DNA of 64,000 nt from a virus. Its lineage: Duplodnaviria; Caudoviricetes. The stretch spans positions 9,660 through 73,659 of IMG/VR virus record IMGVR_UViG_3300037761_000327. One strand, written 5' to 3'. The notes under the pieces were generated by a model. The model ran no database searches, had not been told where the DNA came from, and saw only the letters and a list, made by a program, of their open reading frames with translations. Each line of letters starts with the position of its first letter. Position 1 is the stretch's first letter. Below are positions 49,667-63,538 of the stretch, one piece after another. Made by a program: the position numbers and the translations under genes.

Positions 49667-49715
49667 TATGATAATAATTGTTTAATGATTGTTTTGGCAA
49701 TATTGCCGGTTTCAG

Positions 49716-49789
49716 TGGTAGGGGACGGATTCGAACCGCCATATCGGGCGCATCGGGCCCCGCGCTCTGACCAATTGAGCTACCCTACT
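49716..49789 (-). tRNA. tRNA-like gene with aberrant anticodon arm (possibly Ile-GAT pseudogene)
   Basis: Good D arm GCTC/GAGC and T arm GGCGG-TTCGAAT-CCGTC; loop CCGATGC lacks U33 and purine-rich 3' side. Confidence 0.55.
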
Positions 49790-55822: not shown

Positions 55823-56007
55823 GATTTTTCTTTTTGATATCCGTACTCAGTTTCTTTTTTCTCTAGCAGCTCTATACAATCCAAGTGCAGGAGAGTTGCG
55901 TCCTTAAAACTAAGGTTGTCTAGGTTGTATCCCAGCCCCTTGGCCCATTCGCTGAACCTTATTATGTCTTCCATGGTTCAGTGTGTTTTGGATTTTATAT
56001 TTATTAG

Positions 56008-56083
56008 TAGCCCGTGGGAGAATCGAACTCGCCATTTTACGGTTGAAAACCGCACGTCCTTATATCCGTTAGACGAACGGGCC
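56008..56083 (-). tRNA. tRNA-Glu (TTC)
   Basis: GGCCCGT/ACGGGCT acceptor; TGCGG-TTTTCAA-CCGTA; TTCGATT loop. Confidence 0.85.
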
Positions 56084-57778: not shown

Positions 57779-58471
57779 CGGCAACTTTCCCGAAAAACAA
57801 TAAAAAAATCGATGAAATGCAGGAAAATCCGATGAAATGTAGTCAAAGGGCGACTTAAGGATGCATGATGCGGGAGCGGGCGGGCGTGTAGATATATACC
57901 CGCACGTGGGCAGGATAATTACGTGTGTGCGTATGCGGGAATATAGCCACGATAGGGGCAGGTCATGGCGTTGGGAGGGCATGCCGTTGGTAGATTGTGC
58001 CGGGGTGGGTCAAGGCCATCATAGACAGAATCTATAGCAGCAATAACTGCCCATAGACAAAACACATAGAAGGGCAATTTCCTACCCTAATAAAGTTAGT
58101 TAAATACCTGTTTAACACACTTTACTTATACATAAACAAGCTATAAAAAACTGGCACAAGGATACACAAGGTATTCGTATAAGCTATTGGAACACAGATG
58201 GTTAGGCCATAAAAAAGCTAAAACTTTTGACAGAAAAATCTCAAACAGGACCCCCGCCCCCTCGCAGAAATTCGATTTCCTTTTCGGCCGCGAGCCCTTA
58301 AAATATACTATGACTTAAAGCGGTTTAAGCGAAATATCTCTGTGAATTTTTGAAAAATCATGCAAGTTTTAACATTCTTTAACAATGACGGATTTTATAC
58401 CGAATTTTTGGCCTAAAAATAGACCCAAAAACAGTTCTATTTTAATCTTTTTAAAAATAATTTGATATGAG

Positions 58472-58507
58472 TTTGGTTTGTATTATAATTTTACTTATAT
58501 TTGTACC
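58472..58507 (+). promoter_or_regulatory. Promoter of tRNA cluster 1 (36-bp exact repeat of 61681-61716)
   Basis: TTTGGTTTGTATTATAATTTTACTTATATTTGTACC contains -33 TTTG and -7 TATATTTG. Confidence 0.85.
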
Positions 58508-58533
58508 TGAACGATTAAAAAGAAACATTTTCA

Positions 58534-58614
58534 ATGTACTCAACAGCCATCATAGCGACAGTAATCAGAACCGGAGGTAAGGATAAACCCTCGGGGAGGA
58601 TTTTTATGCTGTAA
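58534..58614 (+). CDS. Putative leader peptide 1 (MYSTAIIATVIRTGGKDKPSGRIFML)
   Basis: 26-codon ORF between promoter and terminator. Confidence 0.7.
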   Translation: MYSTAIIATVIRTGGKDKPSGRIFML

Positions 58615-58640
58615 TGTCGATAGTACATTAAATTACACAT

Positions 58641-58672
58641 AAACCTTCTCCCTAAAAAGAGAGGGTTTTTTA
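58641..58672 (+). terminator. Attenuator terminator 1
   Basis: AAACCTTCTC-loop-GAGAGGGTTT followed by T run. Confidence 0.8.
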
Positions 58673-58674
58673 TT

Positions 58675-58705
58675 GGCCTGTTAGTTTAGCTGACGAAAAC
58701 TTGCC
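58675..58705 (+). pseudogene. 5' tRNA remnant (acceptor 5' strand and D arm)
   Basis: GGCCTGT-TA-GTTT-AGCTGACGA-AAAC directly after the terminator; no T arm follows. Confidence 0.35.
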
Positions 58706-58763
58706 TAATAATAAGCCTTCCAACTAATAATCGCTATTATAAGCAGATTTAAGAGTACAATAT

Positions 58764-58937
58764 ATGAGCAGAACGTACAGAAAAAGTAGAAACGGCTTAA
58801 AATTTAGAGAAGGAAGGTATGCCGAAGGAGTTTTTTATAAGTGCCGGTGTGAATATTGTACTGGAATAGATAAGAAGATTCTTGAGGATAAAATCCTTGA
58901 CAAGGAAATGAAACAGGAGTGTAGCTTAATTGGTTAA
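58764..58937 (+). CDS. 57-aa basic protein MSRTYRK...CRCEYC (not in ORF track)
   Basis: Translated by hand; CxCxxC motif; stop lies inside tRNA-Ile. Confidence 0.55.
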   Translation: MSRTYRKSRNGLKFREGRYAEGVFYKCRCEYCTGIDKKILEDKILDKEMKQECSLIG

Positions 58938-58988
58938 AGTACTCAGCTGATACCTGAGTGAGTGCAAGTTCGAATCTTGCCACTCCTA
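58915..58988 (+). tRNA. tRNA-Ile (GAT)
   Basis: Full cloverleaf: AGGAGTG/CACTCCT, CTCAG-CTGATAC-CTGAG. Confidence 0.92.
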
Positions 58989-58993
58989 CAACT

Positions 58994-59066
58994 GCGAAAG
59001 AGGTCATAGAGGAATGGCGCCTGCCTTCCAAGCAGGAGTTAGCGAGTTCGAACCTCGTCTTTCGCT
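58994..59066 (+). tRNA. tRNA-Gly (TCC)
   Basis: GCGAAAG/CTTTCGC, CCTGC-CTTCCAA-GCAGG. Confidence 0.9.
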
Positions 59067-59071
59067 AATTT

Positions 59072-59155
59072 AGCGGGGCAGTCAGTAGAGGAAGCTTGTG
59101 GGGCTCATAACCCCATGCCGAAAGGCCCCGGGAGTTCGAATCCCCCTCCCTGTTC
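59072..59155 (+). tRNA. tRNA with CAT anticodon (Met/fMet-like) and long variable arm
   Basis: TGGGG-CTCATAA-CCCCA; extra GCC-GAAA-GGC hairpin. Confidence 0.7.
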
Positions 59156-59159
59156 AAAT

Positions 59160-59229
59160 TGGGGTAAGCCTAGGTAGGTTAGCGGACCTTATATGTCCGT
59201 GGGGACGGGTTCGATTCCCTCTACCCCAA
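59160..59229 (+). tRNA. tRNA-Ile (TAT)
   Basis: TGGGGTA/TACCCCA; CGGAC-CTTATAT-GTCCG; short D arm. Confidence 0.7.
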
Positions 59230-59233
59230 CAAA

Positions 59234-59265
59234 TTTGGTAGTTACAAAAGAATTTCGTATCTTTG
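59234..59265 (+). promoter_or_regulatory. Promoter (-33 TTTG, -7 TATCTTTG), probably leaderless
   Basis: ATG at 59269 follows the -7 box after 3 nt. Confidence 0.65.
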
Positions 59266-59268
59266 ACC

Positions 59269-59553
59269 ATGACGGATTTTATACCTAAAAAAAACCAACA
59301 GGAGATACACGAAATCAACTTCCAGAACGCCGAGGAGCTGCTACTGTACCACAAGTACCTGTACTACGAGCTCTCCAAGCCGATGGTGACCGACCAACAC
59401 TTCGACCAGCTCGACCAATATGCAAGAAGACTTTCCCAGTACGTATGCCCCAAGCGCTTTCCACCGGAGGAATACGTACACGAGACAATGGTCGGCTTTG
59501 ATAAAAATCACCGGTTGTGGCCGAAAGTGAAAGAGAGATTTGGAATAAAATAA
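59269..59553 (+). CDS. Stand-alone protein resembling NAD-dependent DNA ligase domain Ia
   Basis: LLYHKYLYYELSKPMVTDQHFDQL matches H...YY....P.I.D..YD.L; ends with a VG motif. Confidence 0.65.
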   Translation: MTDFIPKKNQQEIHEINFQNAEELLLYHKYLYYELSKPMVTDQHFDQLDQYARRLSQYVCPKRFPPEEYVHETMVGFDKNHRLWPKVKERFGIK

Positions 59554-59569
59554 AAAAATTGTATAAAAG

Positions 59570-59600
59570 TTTGTAGGTATCAAAAAAAGTTGTATATTAG
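59570..59600 (+). promoter_or_regulatory. Promoter of tRNA cluster 2
   Basis: -33 TTTG at 59570; -7 variant TATATTAG at 59593-59600. Confidence 0.65.
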
Positions 59601-59604
59601 CAGC

Positions 59605-59694
59605 ATGAAAACATTAAACACATATAATTCCTTTTGGTATTCGAATTGCTCCGGCAATGTTGAAGGGGATTCCTATGTCTACAAACTCATATAA
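59605..59694 (+). CDS. Putative leader peptide 2 (MKTLNTYNSFWYSNCSGNVEGDSYVYKLI)
   Basis: 29-codon ORF between promoter and terminator. Confidence 0.8.
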   Translation: MKTLNTYNSFWYSNCSGNVEGDSYVYKLI

Positions 59695-59724
59695 CTGTTT
59701 TCGTTTTTTGATTTTGATTCATTT

Positions 59725-59754
59725 AACCCTTCGTCTCCTAACGAGGGGTTTTTT
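59725..59754 (+). terminator. Attenuator terminator 2
   Basis: AACCCTTCGT-ctccta-ACGAGGGGTT followed by TTTT. Confidence 0.85.
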
Positions 59755-59760
59755 GTTTTA

Positions 59761-59845
59761 TGCCATTTTATACCGTAGGGGTAGCGGGGCAGACTGTAAA
59801 TCTGTTGTTTAACGACTCGGGTGGTTCGACTCCACCAGGTGGCAC
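59761..59845 (+). tRNA. tRNA-Tyr (GTA)
   Basis: GCAGA-CTGTAAA-TCTGT; long variable arm; GGTGG-TTCGACT-CCACC. Confidence 0.85.
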
Positions 59846-59849
59846 ATTT

Positions 59850-59932
59850 AGTGGGTAGCGCAGAGGTTGCGAACCGGTCTTGAAAACCGGGCTATCGGGG
59901 GACTGATGAGGGTTCGATTCCTTTACCCACTA
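59850..59932 (+). tRNA. tRNA-Ser (TGA)
   Basis: AGTGGGT/ACCCACT; CCGGT-CTTGAAA-ACCGG; long variable arm. Confidence 0.85.
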
Positions 59933-59986
59933 CAATATATTTGTTCAATTATTTTTCGTACTTTTGATTCGAACTAAAATAAAACT

Positions 59987-60505
59987 ATGAAAGGACAAAT
60001 ATTAAAATTAAGAAGCTCGGGTAAAACCTACAACGAAATTATAAAAGAGCTAGGTTGCAGCAAAGGCACAGTGAGTTATTATTGTGGAGAAGGTCAAAAA
60101 ACTAAAACTCTAGCCAGAACTAGAAAAAGAAGAACAAACCCTGTAGTGGGCAAACTTGAAAAGTTTTTGTCAAGGGCAAACAAGATAAGGGTAAATGATT
60201 TTCAAAGGAATAGAGGAAATGGAGGCTCTTTTAAAGAGGGGAGAGATTATAATTTCACAGTAAAAGATGCTATTAAAAAATTTGGACATAATCCTATTTG
60301 CTATTTGACGGGCAGAAGAATAGATTTATTAGATAGTAAATCTTATCACTTTGACCACATTATTCCGGTGTCCAAGGGGGGTAAGAATACCTTAAGTAAC
60401 TTAGGACTACTGTGCAGAGAGGCTAATTACTCGAAAAGTGATATGATGGTAGATGAATACCTACAGTTATGTAAAGAGGTTATAGAATATTCTAATAGAG
60501 GGTAA
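59987..60505 (+). CDS. HTH-HNH homing endonuclease inside the tRNA cluster
   Basis: GKTYNEI..ELGCSKGTVSYY; CYLTG, FDHIIPVSKGG.N...NL...C...N..K. Confidence 0.88.
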   Translation: MKGQILKLRSSGKTYNEIIKELGCSKGTVSYYCGEGQKTKTLARTRKRRTNPVVGKLEKFLSRANKIRVNDFQRNRGNGGSFKEGRDYNFTVKDAIKKFGHNPICYLTGRRIDLLDSKSYHFDHIIPVSKGGKNTLSNLGLLCREANYSKSDMMVDEYLQLCKEVIEYSNRG

Positions 60506-60580
60506 ACTGAGCAGGTGTTCAGGAGGTATTGCTAATACTATCGAGGGTAGTACCTTGCGTTTCGAGTACGCTGCCCTCTT
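60497..60580 (+). tRNA. tRNA-Ser (GCT)
   Basis: AGAGGGT/GCCCTCT; GGTA-TTGCTAA-TACT; long variable arm. Confidence 0.75.
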
Positions 60581-60589
60581 CTATTATAA

Positions 60590-60676
60590 GGGTAAGTTGC
60601 CGTAGTGGACGAACGGTTCAGCCTGTTAAGCTGGCGAGCAAAAGCTCCATCGTAGGTTCGAATCCTACCTTGCCCT
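60590..60676 (+). tRNA. tRNA-Asn (GTT) with long variable arm
   Basis: GGGTAAG/CTTGCCC; TCAGC-CTGTTAA-GCTGG; GAGC-AAAA-GCTC. Confidence 0.8.
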
Positions 60677-60683
60677 CTTTAAT

Positions 60684-60754
60684 GCTTGTGAGCGCAGGTT
60701 GTGCCGGTCGGTCTCCAAAACTGTACCGTAAGAGTTCGAATCTCTTCACTCGCG
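60684..60754 (+). tRNA. tRNA-Trp (CCA)
   Basis: CGGT-CTCCAAA-ACTG; AAGAG-TTCGAAT-CTCTT; two acceptor mismatches. Confidence 0.7.
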
Positions 60755-60759
60755 CTAAT

Positions 60760-60862
60760 TAAAATAGACTTATGCCGTGAAACGGTGTGATGGTCGCTGG
60801 ATGAAAGCAACGCACTTAATGACCGTGCCCAAAATTGATAAAATTTCCAGATGTCTATTTTA
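60760..60862 (+). ncRNA. Candidate structured non-tRNA RNA
   Basis: 10-bp closing stem TAAAATAGAC/GTCTATTTTA enclosing several hairpins. Confidence 0.5.
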
Positions 60863-60868
60863 TTACTT

Positions 60869-60942
60869 GCGTCAGAAGCTAACTTGGTTAGAAGCGCCGG
60901 CTTGAAGCCCCGGAGGAGTTGGTTCGATTCCAGCCTGTCGCA
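60869..60942 (+). tRNA. tRNA-Phe (GAA)
   Basis: GCGTCAG/CTGTCGC; loop TTGAAGC; GTTGG-TTCGATT-CCAGC. Confidence 0.8.
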
Positions 60943-60955
60943 CATAATTATCTAT

Positions 60956-61030
60956 ATTGGGGAACCTGACGGAGAAGGGGGACGTCTGCAAAACCATCCC
61001 ATGCCGGTTCGACCCCGGCCCCCAATTCCA
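60956..61030 (+). tRNA. tRNA-Cys (GCA)
   Basis: ATTGGGG/CCCCAAT, U discriminator, CCA; loop CTGCAAA. Confidence 0.8.
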
Positions 61031-61078
61031 TTTAAATTCTTTTTTGTACCTTTACAACCTAACATTAAAAATGTAACA

Positions 61079-61405
61079 ATGGCAAAAACAACAAAAAACG
61101 GGCCGGGGGACAAGGACAAGAAAAAAAAATCCACCTCCAAAGCTAACGACACGATAAGCCCGTACTACGCAGCGGTAAAATATGGAAGCTCTCTCGAAAA
61201 GAATGCTGCCAAGAAATCCATGGCAGGATACTTCTCCGGCTCCCCTGCCAACAAAAGAGGAGAGTCCGAGAGCCAGCACATGTCCAGAATGGCCAAAAAA
61301 GATACTATCCCCAGTGCCAGAAAAGCGAGGGGAGTATATCAGGCAGGTAACTTTGGTCCCAGCATCGGCAAAAAAGCATCCTCAACCGTAAAAAAGAAAA
61401 AGTAA
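61079..61405 (+). CDS. Lys-rich hypothetical protein
   Basis: Start reassigned to MAKTT because the upstream part of the track ORF is tRNA sequence. Confidence 0.6.
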   Translation: MAKTTKNGPGDKDKKKKSTSKANDTISPYYAAVKYGSSLEKNAAKKSMAGYFSGSPANKRGESESQHMSRMAKKDTIPSARKARGVYQAGNFGPSIGKKASSTVKKKK

Positions 61406-61406
61406 T

Positions 61407-61679
61407 ATGAAAAATCTATTCTTAGGACTTGCACTATTGATTTCGTCTATAGTGTTCTCACAGGAGCCCGTTCTGGACAGCATACAAGTTTTTAAACCTA
61501 TGCCGGAGCCTGTACTGATAGCCACTATGTACGAATACGAAACGTTCTTCGAGAAACTTACAAAAGTGTCCGACAGGACAGGTGCCAATGAGGTTATCTG
61601 CGTATTTTTCTACAAAGAGGATAAAGACTCTCCCCAAAAAACTCTGGTAAAAACTTTTATTAGAAAAAAACAACGATAA
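61407..61679 (+). CDS. Secreted hypothetical protein
   Basis: Signal peptide MKNLFLGLALLISSIVFS-Q. Confidence 0.6.
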   Translation: MKNLFLGLALLISSIVFSQEPVLDSIQVFKPMPEPVLIATMYEYETFFEKLTKVSDRTGANEVICVFFYKEDKDSPQKTLVKTFIRKKQR

Positions 61680-61680
61680 A

Positions 61681-61716
61681 TTTGGTTTGTATTATAATTT
61701 TACTTATATTTGTACC
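61681..61716 (+). promoter_or_regulatory. Promoter of tRNA cluster 3 (identical to 58472-58507)
   Basis: 36-bp exact repeat with -33 and -7 boxes. Confidence 0.85.
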
Positions 61717-61719
61717 ATC

Positions 61720-61797
61720 ATGAAAACAACACGCTTTGTTGCGGTACGCAACTTACATACACAGCTACTAGAGCAACCGGAAATAATCGTCTGGTAG
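61720..61797 (+). CDS. Putative leader peptide 3 (MKTTRFVAVRNLHTQLLEQPEIIVW)
   Basis: 25-codon ORF between promoter and terminator. Confidence 0.75.
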   Translation: MKTTRFVAVRNLHTQLLEQPEIIVW

Positions 61798-61839
61798 GGA
61801 TAGGTATGGTGTGATGTAAGAAACTTATATTATCGTATT

Positions 61840-61873
61840 AAGCCTCCCCGGAAACGTGGGGGCTTTTTATTTT
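61840..61873 (+). terminator. Attenuator terminator 3
   Basis: AAGCCTCCCCG-GAAA-CGTGGGGGCTT followed by TTTATTTT. Confidence 0.85.
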
Positions 61874-61946
61874 CGGGATGTGACAAAATTGGTAACGTGC
61901 TCGGTTTGGAGCCGAGAGACTGTAGGTTCGAGGCCTACCTCCCCTA
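61874..61946 (+). tRNA. tRNA-Pro (TGG), weak acceptor stem
   Basis: CTCGG-TTTGGAG-CCGAG; GTAGG-TTCGAGG-CCTAC. Confidence 0.7.
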
Positions 61947-61994
61947 CAAAGAGACGTTTGGCCGTTTAACTCCTTAAAAAACAATGGCCCTAAT

Positions 61995-62067
61995 GCTACC
62001 ATCGTCTAAATGGTCAGGACACAAGACTTTCAATCTTGAAATCGGGTTTCGATTACCCGTGGTAGTA
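61995..62067 (+). tRNA. tRNA-Glu (TTC)
   Basis: GCTACCA/TGGTAGT; CAAGA-CTTTCAA-TCTTG. Confidence 0.9.
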
Positions 62068-62077
62068 CGAATATAAT

Positions 62078-62148
62078 TGGAGTATGATGTAGTGGTAACA
62101 TGGTTGGTTTTGAGCCAACTCTCGGAGGTTCGACCCCTTCTGCTCCAA
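62078..62148 (+). tRNA. tRNA-Gln (TTG)
   Basis: TGGAGTA/TGCTCCA; GTTGG-TTTTGAG-CCAAC. Confidence 0.9.
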
Positions 62149-62155
62149 CTAACAT

Positions 62156-62237
62156 GGTGTCATTGTTGTAAACGGTGAGCATAGTAGGTTGTGACCTTGC
62201 AGGTCTCGGTTCGAATACTCCCGGGCGTTCTACACCA
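62156..62237 (+). pseudogene. tRNA-His (GTG) with disrupted 3' end
   Basis: Normal through GTAGG-TTGTGAC-CTTGC and CTCGG-TTCGAAT, then loses register. Confidence 0.65.
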
Positions 62238-62367
62238 ATTTCGTACTATTGGGCGTCCTGAAAGATAGGGCGTCCTTTATCTTTGAATCCTTCCTTCTGT
62301 ACAGCCTCGCTACCTTTTTATTAGGGTCGGAGGCCTTTTCCGATATCTTATGTTTTCTGTAGTTCAT
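62230..62367 (-). CDS. 45-aa basic protein (not in ORF track)
   Basis: MNYRKHKISEKASDPNKKVARLYRRKDSKIKDALSFRTPNSTKLV. Confidence 0.55.
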   Translation of the reverse strand: MNYRKHKISEKASDPNKKVARLYRRKDSKIKDALSFRTPNSTKLV

Positions 62368-62404
62368 AGTTGCAAGGTAATGATTTTTTTGTTATATTGT
62401 ATTC

Positions 62405-62899
62405 ATGATAAAAAGATTTATATTACTCGCCCTTACACTGACCGTCTTCGGTTTCACCTTCGACCACGGCCCCATTAACTACGTCCAAGAACAAAAGATG
62501 GGAAGGCCCCACGTAGAGGCTCGACTACTGAAATACTTTAATGAGCTGGACTCTATCTACGTCTCCAAAGGCATCGTAATAGACTACTCCAAGGTATCCA
62601 GCATACAGAGTATGGACTCACTCCCGTACGACCCGGTGTTGCAAGGAAAGTCTTTGGAAGGCCTGTATAATAAGCACACAAATCAAGTGTACATAAACAC
62701 CTATCAATTGGATGCCTTTTTTAAGGGCAAGTACAAAGAGAAGATTTTGCTTATAATGGCACATGAGATAGGCCACTCACAAGGTATGGGCCACTCTAAT
62801 GACACCACTTCCATAATGTACTACAGTAGTAAGTACGTTTCGGCCCTGCTGGATAACAATAAAATTGAGGACCTTGTGAGCGAGATGTATTTAAATTGA
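62405..62899 (+). CDS. Secreted metzincin (matrixin/M10-like) metalloprotease
   Basis: Signal peptide; HEIGHSQGMGH; Met-turn SIMY. Confidence 0.85.
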   Translation: MIKRFILLALTLTVFGFTFDHGPINYVQEQKMGRPHVEARLLKYFNELDSIYVSKGIVIDYSKVSSIQSMDSLPYDPVLQGKSLEGLYNKHTNQVYINTYQLDAFFKGKYKEKILLIMAHEIGHSQGMGHSNDTTSIMYYSSKYVSALLDNNKIEDLVSEMYLN

Positions 62900-63538
62900 C
62901 ATTTTTAGCCTTTGATATCTTCGGCCCAAATTATTTATACTATTCCTCCTCTTTAAAGTTCTACCCCTCTTCGGGGGGAGGTTCTATAAGTATTACTTAT
63001 GTAGTAAGTAACTACTATATAAGTACCTATTAAATATTTACTACTTTATTAAGTAACTACTATAATAGTATTGAAACGATATCTAACGGGGAACGCTACG
63101 CTTTAAACAAAAATAAGGGTTTTCCTTATATTGCTTTGTCGTAACGCTCGTTCATTTGTCTTGAAACTGACTCTGAACGGGTGTGGGTATATCTCCCAAG
63201 GGTGTTTAGTCCTCTACCTCCCTGTTGCTAACACTAACACGACCCCCGCGGGCCCAAAGATGCTTGGCCCCCGTCAACTGGCCCCATGCTACAAGGAATA
63301 CTTGTTTTAAGACGGTCGGATACTTCGGGCAGTCCTACTACCTCTTTCTCCTTGTTCCCCTAGCTTTTTAAGTGGTCTGGGTAAATCGTCACTCCGTAAT
63401 GTAAATAAGTACAAATATACAAAAAATATTCTAATCACCAAACAATACCACCATTATTTTTATAAAAAATTCACAGTCCCTCATAACTCCCTGATTTACT
63501 GCGCGATAAAAAATAATTTAAAAATAATTACCCTAAAG

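Follow-up and report, generated by a model that had tools for sequence, protein, structure and literature searches.

Leader-peptide attenuators such as those of trpL, hisL, pheL, and leuL have a promoter-proximal open reading frame (ORF) with regulatory codons and share RNA strands among three alternative helices, 1:2, 2:3, and 3:4. Such an element can be multivalent, as is ilvL (Ile, Leu, and Val), and the pheST attenuator with its pheM leader places a component of the translation apparatus under the control of charged tRNA-Phe availability, its target being a host synthetase gene and one amino acid. The element described here has the same layout and lies in a phage transfer RNA (tRNA) array, in a 64-kilobase (kb) stretch of DNA (the window) from the IMG/VR virus record IMGVR_UViG_3300037761_000327, which has 73,659 bases and is rated 100% complete. 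The array occupies 58.5–62.3 kb of the window on the + strand and is split into three groups, every one of which is headed by a promoter-like box, a short ORF, and an intrinsic terminator. The module under study, module 2 (59605–59759), heads the second tRNA group and is probably a ribosome-mediated (leader-peptide) transcription attenuator that gates this tRNA sub-cluster. Its anatomy, its alternative pairings, their conservation and covariation, and the correspondence between leader codons and tRNA genes are shown here. For the regulation and purpose of phage tRNA genes, the current ideas are codon compensation and escape from tRNA-cleaving defences (for example, PMC10264068).

The closest named relatives are the Cellulophaga phages phi38:1, phi40:1, and Calle_1-3 (Callevirus, Pervagoviridae), to which the window is ~78% identical in regions confined to the tRNA genes. 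All three modules are present in phi38:1 and Calle_1, and Maribacter phage Panino has module 2; the tRNA clusters of phi38:1, phi40:1, Calle_1-3, and Panino are true homologues, with the gene order and the leader-terminator modules found in the window. A total of 31 modules were analysed, from Callevirus-like phages, Panino, and viral or metagenome contigs, comprising 27 modules and 4 more, with differing leader starts, that came from a search from the tRNA side. The set includes near-duplicates (Calle versus phi38:1, L272 versus L103, and L147 versus L068), and the tests so marked below use 23 non-duplicate modules.

The promoter-like box of module 2 ends 4 nucleotides (nt) before the ATG, as does that of most homologous modules, and this spacing suggests that the messenger RNA is leaderless or nearly so. 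The box resembles TAnnTTnG, which we take to be the Bacteroidota promoter consensus. A short ORF near the predicted transcription start and upstream of the regulated genes is a constant of the homologues, in which start and frame are both conserved: Met-Lys-Thr opens the leader in 27 of the 31 modules, and gaps inside the codon run are multiples of three (MAFFT alignment A1). Past RNA segment 2, the tail of the ORF shows no conservation of its protein sequence, and a 1-nt indel is present there in one homologue; the tails of type-2 leaders are Cys-rich. The stop codon is followed after 25 nt by the extended terminator hairpin and after ~30 nt by the arm that begins at 59725. Across 27 modules the distance from stop codon to terminator arm is 23–49 nt, and a terminating ribosome therefore cannot reach the hairpin.

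The codon run of the leader corresponds to the tRNA genes that follow it. The first-pass annotation of the window had counted 11 of 12 codons as encoding amino acids served by the downstream cluster, and this count is borne out, with the qualification that the tRNA-Trp and tRNA-Cys genes are weak calls. Over the wider span of codons 4–18, 12 of 15 match cluster amino acids (binomial P = 5e-6 against a background of 0.23); at the level of codon decoding, 10 of the 15 are read under strict wobble rules, and two more (TCC) if U34 reads all four. The opinion that module 2 is the clearest of the three holds for the window, where modules 1 and 3 match at 5 of 16 and 5 of 18 codons. In the eight loci with at least two modules each, the mean match of a leader to its own cluster is 0.68 (n = 18) as compared with 0.09 (n = 24) to the other clusters of the same phage (Mann-Whitney p = 2.7e-8), so that decoding of the run would report on the products of the genes it precedes. 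The leader peptides of the three module types are unrelated beyond their start, and each tracks its own tRNA set. L220, a metagenome contig of 4468 nt, has an array that is split differently, with leaders at 197 and 1759. Its first leader has Leu, Tyr, Ser, Arg, Phe, Cys, and Trp codons before Phe, Tyr, Ser, Trp, Leu, and Arg tRNAs. The second leaves out none of the 13 amino acids whose tRNAs follow it (Pro, Ala, Gly, Asp, Asn, Ile, Val, Lys, Met, Glu, Thr, Gln, and His), with matches at 22 of 23 run residues. The amino acids are divided between the two leaders in the same way as between the two clusters. In L068, tRNA-Glu is absent and so is Glu from the leader run. In both cases the leader-to-tRNA match follows rearrangements of the array.

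An intrinsic terminator stands between leader and regulated genes in module 2, as one does in all 31 modules. It comprises 10 base pairs (bp), five of them G-C, with a loop of six and a T-tail, and the hairpin is worth -14.8 kcal/mol. The first tRNA gene starts 2 nt 3' of the T-tract, which leaves no space for a promoter between them, and the downstream tRNAs can therefore be made only by read-through. Upstream, AATTCCTTTT at 59626–59635 covers the Asn-Ser-Phe codons 8–10 and the first base of the Trp codon, and GAAGGGGATT lies at 59662–59671. The 10-bp pairing that had been proposed between these two is possible as written (seven Watson-Crick and three G-U pairs), but the minimum free energy (MFE) structure uses only seven bp of it (59626–59632 with 59665–59671); the GAA part closes instead onto TTC of the Tyr-Ser codons (59640–59644 with 59660–59664) around a small inner hairpin (59645–59649 with 59654–59658). 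In either register of this protector the whole of the G-rich segment 2 is sequestered. The MFE structure also contains the terminator. The leader RNA as a whole has an MFE of -33.7 kcal/mol (z = -2.51), which was equalled in stability by 3 of 200 shuffles. CCCTTC, named by the first-pass annotation as the alternative partner of GAAGGG, was found at 59727–59732, inside the 5' arm of the terminator. The antiterminator so formed between segments 2 and 3 has 7 bp and -11.0 kcal/mol, as compared with -6.8 ± 2.0 for 1000 dinucleotide shuffles of the sequence between the two segments (p = 0.05; p = 0.03 for the duplex with 100 shuffles). The coordinates of all features are collected in the table.

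Features of the three leader-terminator modules and of the second tRNA group (window coordinates)
Feature	Position	Strand	Remarks
Putative Bacteroidota-type promoter of module 2	59570–59600	+	TTTG 59570–59573; TAnnTTnG-like box 59593–59600, read directly
Leader ORF of module 2	59605–59694	+	29 codons and stop; ATG at 59605
Regulatory codon run	59617–59652	+	Codons 5–16; 11/12 read by downstream tRNAs (Tyr, Ser, Asn, Trp, Phe, Cys)
Segment 1, 5' strand of protector	59626–59649	+	From MFE structure
Segment 2, strand common to protector and antiterminator	59661–59671	+	Antiterminator core 59661–59667, inside codons 19–21
Segment 3, 5' arm of terminator	59725–59734	+	Antiterminator partner 59727–59733
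Segment 4	59741–59759	+	3' arm of terminator 59741–59750 (hairpin 59725–59750) and T-tract to 59759
tRNA-Tyr(GTA)	59762–59845	+	ARAGORN default; first regulated gene
tRNA-Ser(TGA)	59850–59933	+	ARAGORN default
tRNA-Asn(GTT)	60590–60677	+	ARAGORN default
Candidate tRNA-Trp(CCA)	60684–60755	+	ARAGORN only at thresholds lowered to 90–95%
tRNA-Phe(GAA)	60869–60943	+	ARAGORN default
Candidate tRNA-Cys(GCA)	60956–61030	+	ARAGORN only at thresholds lowered to 90–95%
Module 1	58534–58668	+	Leader ORF 58534–58614; terminator 58641–58668
Module 3	61720–61870	+	Leader ORF 61720–61797; terminator 61845–61862; before tRNA-Pro, Glu, Gln

Antiterminator and terminator exclude one another through the shared 5' arm, and shuffles, covariation, and the comparison of cognate with swapped partners all bear on this pairing. 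The antiterminator is above shuffles at p ≤ 0.05 in 22 of 27 modules and in 25 of 31 in the enlarged set. In the 23 non-duplicate modules, the 2:3 duplex has a mean of -11.6 kcal/mol for cognate segments versus -9.5 kcal/mol for swapped ones (p < 5e-5), and the swap test within type 3 gives p < 5e-5 (n = 11). The terminator arms vary by lineage and segment 2 changes along with them. The codon run is always followed closely by segment 2, whose mean position is at 0.24 of the length of the stretch searched. In constrained folds the transcript ends before the 3' arm of the terminator and its first 44 nt are masked, as the footprint of a stalled ribosome; the probability of the 2:3 pairing, P(2:3), rises from 0.30 in the free RNA to 0.73 in the masked RNA, which favours the switch. 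Under the same masking, the 5' arm of the terminator pairs with the G-rich stretch at codons 18–26 in all 11 type-2 homologues, and in the free full-length MFE structure of all 11 the segment-2 bases that pair with the arm are held by the codon-run region.

Covariation was scored on the 11 type-2 leaders after realignment with a covariance model that holds the inner protector and the terminator only, so that the antiterminator was not fitted. The 2:3 helix covaries in this alignment, with a score of 0.407 that was reached by none of 500 shuffles, and 80.7% of its cells are paired as compared with 35–71% in slid controls. Changes on both sides of the helix occur in eight cells, a number equalled by 2 of 500 shuffles, and at two positions G-C and A-U are exchanged. 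Two rows, from the phi38:1/Calle group, are misaligned at the terminator, and these were scored against the helix. RNAalifold on MAFFT alignment A1, in which the terminators are one column off, recovered only the terminator. The helices of the inner protector are 94.2% paired in the MAFFT alignment of the 11 homologues, with 38–60% in slid controls, and this pairing with segment 2 accounts for the conserved nucleotides of the Tyr-Ser-Asn-Cys codons. The first-pass annotation had further supposed that a ribosome stalled on the run masks segment 1 and frees the antiterminator; the constrained folds and the covariation support this.

Several observations weigh against an attenuator of this kind. 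Of the parts of the switch, the protector is the least secure: its pairing in the window sequence alone is not above chance (duplex p = 0.25, ensemble test p = 0.20), it lowers P(2:3) from 0.73 to 0.30 but 20% of shuffled versions of segment 1 do the same, and significance at p ≤ 0.05 is confined to 10 of 27 modules. The antiterminator is not above shuffles in modules 1 and 3 of the window, L028, L215, L191_M3, and L191_M2b; the swap test within type 2 alone gives p = 0.06 (n = 9); and the Fisher combination over the 23 non-duplicate modules, 2e-15, overstates independence given their common descent. Each regulatory amino acid has only one to four codons in the run, whereas the his and pheA leaders have far more of theirs. 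L028 has a full type-2 run before a Phe tRNA only and L272 before Asn only, and modules 1 and 3 of the window keep codons for tRNAs that are found in relatives and not in the window; the match between leader and tRNAs is therefore not strict. The candidate tRNA-Trp and tRNA-Cys genes are weak calls, with mismatches in their cloverleaves, and were missed by ARAGORN at its default setting and by the Rfam tRNA model (58000–63000, E ≤ 1). Their positions are those of genes in the relatives, in which Trp is annotated or both Trp and Cys are found by ARAGORN at lowered thresholds. Finally, in the full-length RNA with nt 1–44 masked, the terminator conformer is better at equilibrium by 4.5 kcal/mol.

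This last result was calibrated on the E. coli K-12 leaders thrL, trpL, hisL, pheL, and leuL with the identical script. In all five the terminator is still favoured after masking, by 2.8–20.5 kcal/mol, and P(2:3) rises on masking from 0.00–0.58 to 0.71–0.91; the window module lies inside the E. coli range on every measure. The first-pass annotation had held that a terminator still dominant with segment 1 masked would refute the switch. Such dominance does occur at equilibrium, and it occurs likewise in five of the five E. coli attenuators; because these validated attenuators behave alike, the comparison at equilibrium is not diagnostic. By analogy with the classical cases, the choice between conformers would be kinetic, since segment 3, on its emergence, would find segment 2 free at a time when segment 4 has yet to be transcribed.

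On this basis, the following course of events is proposed, in which we infer the transcription start, the translation of the leader, the direction of the switch, and a signal of tRNA rather than amino-acid supply. Host RNA polymerase would start just 5' of the ATG, and a ribosome would begin the 29-codon leader. With fast decoding of the Tyr, Asn, Ser, Phe, Trp, and Cys codons, the ribosome would run over segment 2, as an unstalled ribosome physically must because segment 2 is inside the ORF; alternatively, segment 2 would re-pair with segment 1 after the ribosome has passed quickly. With segment 2 occupied in either way, the 3:4 terminator would form and transcription would end 2 nt before tRNA-Tyr. 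Slow decoding of any codon of the run would stall the ribosome on codons 5–15, where it would cover segment 1. A stalled ribosome covers at most ~13 nt past its A-site codon, and segment 2, which begins 9 nt after codon 16, is thus left free with the A site on any of codons 5–15. It would then pair with the 5' arm of the terminator as this emerges, and the polymerase would read through to tRNA-Tyr, Ser, Asn, Trp, Phe, and Cys. The outcome would be a demand-driven feedback on the supply of those tRNAs that the sensor codons require. In RNA libraries of phi38:1 infection, contigs from three runs of two studies span the module-2 promoter region, leader, terminator, tRNAs, and next gene (L004 4273/4284 to 5509/5534); ends, strands, and levels are not readable from contigs, and these are compatible with read-through RNA or with DNA carry-over, a weak hint. 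In the same assemblies, contig ends in the repeated promoter sequence are assembly breaks, the promoter repeats cause false joins, and gaps in cover are uninformative.

The same attenuator could instead report amino-acid starvation or the general status of translation, with the match between codons and tRNAs a relic of shared ancestry of leader and cluster. A ribosome would stall alike at a codon whether its tRNA is missing or only the charging of that tRNA, and codon runs outlast their matching tRNAs in modules 1 and 3 of the window, L028, and L272, as such a sensor would allow. We consider it unlikely, since extra tRNA gives no relief from amino-acid starvation and the composition of the leaders tracks the partition of tRNAs inside one phage (the own-cluster and other-cluster means of 0.68 and 0.09, and L220), a correspondence that a general sensor does not need. 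An account that dispenses with the switch altogether has a constitutively leaky terminator behind an independent small gene, the peptide being functional or untranslated and read-through fixed; the 2:3 pairing would arise because G-rich Gly or Glu codons of any kind match a C-rich terminator arm. The chance-level protector of the window, its borderline 2:3 duplex (p = 0.03–0.05), and the Cys-rich tail of type-2 leaders agree with this. It is nevertheless quite improbable, because peptides that are unrelated beyond their start in the three module types each follow their own tRNA set, the tail of the ORF is unconserved and tolerates a frameshift, the 2:3 helix covaries and cognate pairs are better than swapped ones, and the nucleotide conservation of Tyr-Ser-Asn-Cys is explained by pairing with segment 2.

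The direction of the proposed switch comes from geometry only, and 4 of 31 modules have the antiterminator as their more stable conformer even without masking constraints that favour it, so that a default-on design can be envisaged. Inverse logic, in which efficient translation leads to read-through and stalling to termination, or control by Rho or an RNA-binding protein, is nonetheless very improbable: the distance from stop codon to terminator arm puts the terminating ribosome out of reach, the footprint of a ribosome that stalls on the run ends just before segment 2, an arrangement also found in the trp leader, and the Rfam scan gave no family that points to a protein- or ligand-binding element.

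Modules 1 and 3 differ from module 2 in how much of their correspondence is kept. Module 1 lies 234 nt upstream of tRNA-Ile, Gly, Met, and Ile(TAT), and its leader has retained codons for Thr, Ala, Val, Arg, Lys, and Asp, for which matching tRNAs are present in phi38:1 and L180 and not in the window; its antiterminator has p = 0.08. The leader of module 3 contains codons for His, Leu, and Arg, amino acids for which no tRNA was found downstream of it, and its antiterminator is not above shuffles (p = 0.39). A His tRNA was suspected at ~62150–62240 and rejected; it is not called by ARAGORN even at an 85% threshold, and the stretch resembles a decayed tRNA. Near-identical promoter repeats of ~36 nt precede modules 1 and 3 (58470–58507 and 61681–61716), and the promoter of module 2 is a different variant that is common to all three phi38:1 modules.

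Among the tRNA genes of the second group, tRNA-Tyr and tRNA-Ser are of the long-arm type and have the tRNA-Sec model as their best Rfam match, below the gathering cut-off, and tRNA-Asn is 88 nt long; several tRNAs of this phage family escape default ARAGORN and Rfam. Inside the regulated cluster, between tRNA-Ser and tRNA-Asn, is an HNH endonuclease ORF with an N-terminal helix-turn-helix (59987–60505; Pfam HNH_5, E = 1.7e-9), which phi38:1 lacks at this place. A stand-alone ORF of 94 residues (59269–59553), placed between the module-1 tRNAs and the module-2 promoter, matches no more of NAD-dependent DNA ligase than its N-terminal NAD-binding Ia domain (PF22745, E = 7.7e-7). Directly past the end of the array and its terminator (62251–62275), an ORF of 164 residues (62405–62899) carries a matrixin-type zinc-peptidase motif (PF00413, E = 4.8e-8). 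Two lone tRNA genes, Ile-GAT (49715–49789) and Glu-TTC (56007–56083), are on the minus strand and distant from the array, and a search of the 110 nt upstream of each gave no terminator.

Most of the homologous modules were found by scanning IMG/VR and a metagenome collection with a pattern that consists of the promoter box and the first three codons only, of which the best 80 of 94 and the best 80 of 120 stretches were used. Among all loci gathered, an ORF of 50 codons or fewer follows at 80 sites at least, and a slightly relaxed form of the pattern gave at least 23 distinct sites with a tRNA on the same strand within 250 nt. The promoter-plus-start pattern has at least 121 sites in bacterial and archaeal genomes, and among the matches listed not one has a short ORF and, within 300 nt after it, a tRNA. 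The promoter-only pattern gave 19 stretches in IMG/VR, with modules only in the phi38:1 and Calle_1 records; 16 of the 17 others are without any tRNA. A pattern taken from the leader body gave, in its first form, 12 stretches with three new true loci (L024, L025, and L028, the leader of L024 being equal to that of L025) and, in its second form, one new module, L272, in the best 80 of 94 stretches. In the deposited relatives the leaders are unannotated or labelled "hypothetical protein" (PANI_CDS0108 in Panino, L022 6016–6117; phi38:1 gp066), and gp067 of phi38:1 (L001 3911–4042, minus strand) is annotated on the strand opposite the module-2 leader.

If module 2 works as an attenuator in the manner proposed, phage tRNAs are made on demand, and the demand signal is the slow decoding of the codons they read; the phage probably makes the module-2 tRNAs only when ribosomes run short of them. 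Whether the tRNA arrays of marine Flavobacteriia phages are in general divided into sub-clusters, each under its own codon-matched attenuator, so that failing decoding capacity is read per codon family and only the replacement tRNAs that are needed are turned on, we regard as an evenly balanced question. If they are, the failure of decoding may stem from host shut-off, tRNA turnover, or tRNA-cleaving defence nucleases, and this would be the first case in which ribosomes that stall on the codons read by certain tRNAs control the genes of those same tRNAs, with the phage carrying its own sensor for host defences that target tRNA. With module 2 read as an attenuator, leader-peptide attenuation would extend from genes of amino-acid biosynthesis and synthetases to RNA genes, to leaders that sense 6–13 amino acids at once, and to Bacteroidota phages, where translation initiation departs from the E. 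coli model. A practical consequence is that such leaders are mis-annotated or unannotated in deposited genomes. A cultured and harmless test system exists in phi38:1 or the Calle phages on Cellulophaga.

No match to an Rfam leader family or T-box was found in the window at the gathering score or in 58000–63000 at E ≤ 1, and no description of leader-peptide attenuation of tRNA genes was found in a literature search that left the older papers on the T4 and T5 tRNA regions outside its range. In the excerpted text of the phi38:1 transcriptome paper (PMC5335546), the leader-terminator modules go unmentioned. T-boxes are alike in that transcription is attenuated and the choice between terminator and antiterminator reports on the tRNA pool, but they bind uncharged tRNA directly, without a ribosome or ORF, whereas the sensor in the window is a codon run that is predicted to be translated. 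Among the E. coli leaders, trpL is close to the window on the same measures: its 2:3 duplex has -10.9 kcal/mol (shuffle p = 0.076), P(2:3) rises from 0.06 to 0.71, and the terminator is favoured by 3.9 kcal/mol, as compared with -11.0 kcal/mol, 0.30 to 0.73, and 4.5 kcal/mol in module 2. In contrast to trpL, segment 2 of the window lies inside the ORF, eight codons before the stop. thrL (Thr and Ile) resembles it in having several amino acids per leader and, as a control, gave P(2:3) of 0.58 rising to 0.91. The multivalent E. coli leaders respond to two or three related amino acids, whereas the window run, unlike the single-amino-acid leaders, mixes six with one to four uses each, and L220 reaches up to 13. 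The E. coli leaders regulate biosynthetic enzymes and the window module tRNA genes; unlike them, it is phage-borne, stands in a Bacteroidota-type context, and has no space for a Shine-Dalgarno leader, and it is not related to them in sequence or by Rfam family. New here are tRNA genes as the target, the codon-matched run for many amino acids, and the setting in a Flavobacteriia phage. Module 2 is best read as a classical ribosome-stalling attenuator that has been moved onto phage tRNA genes.

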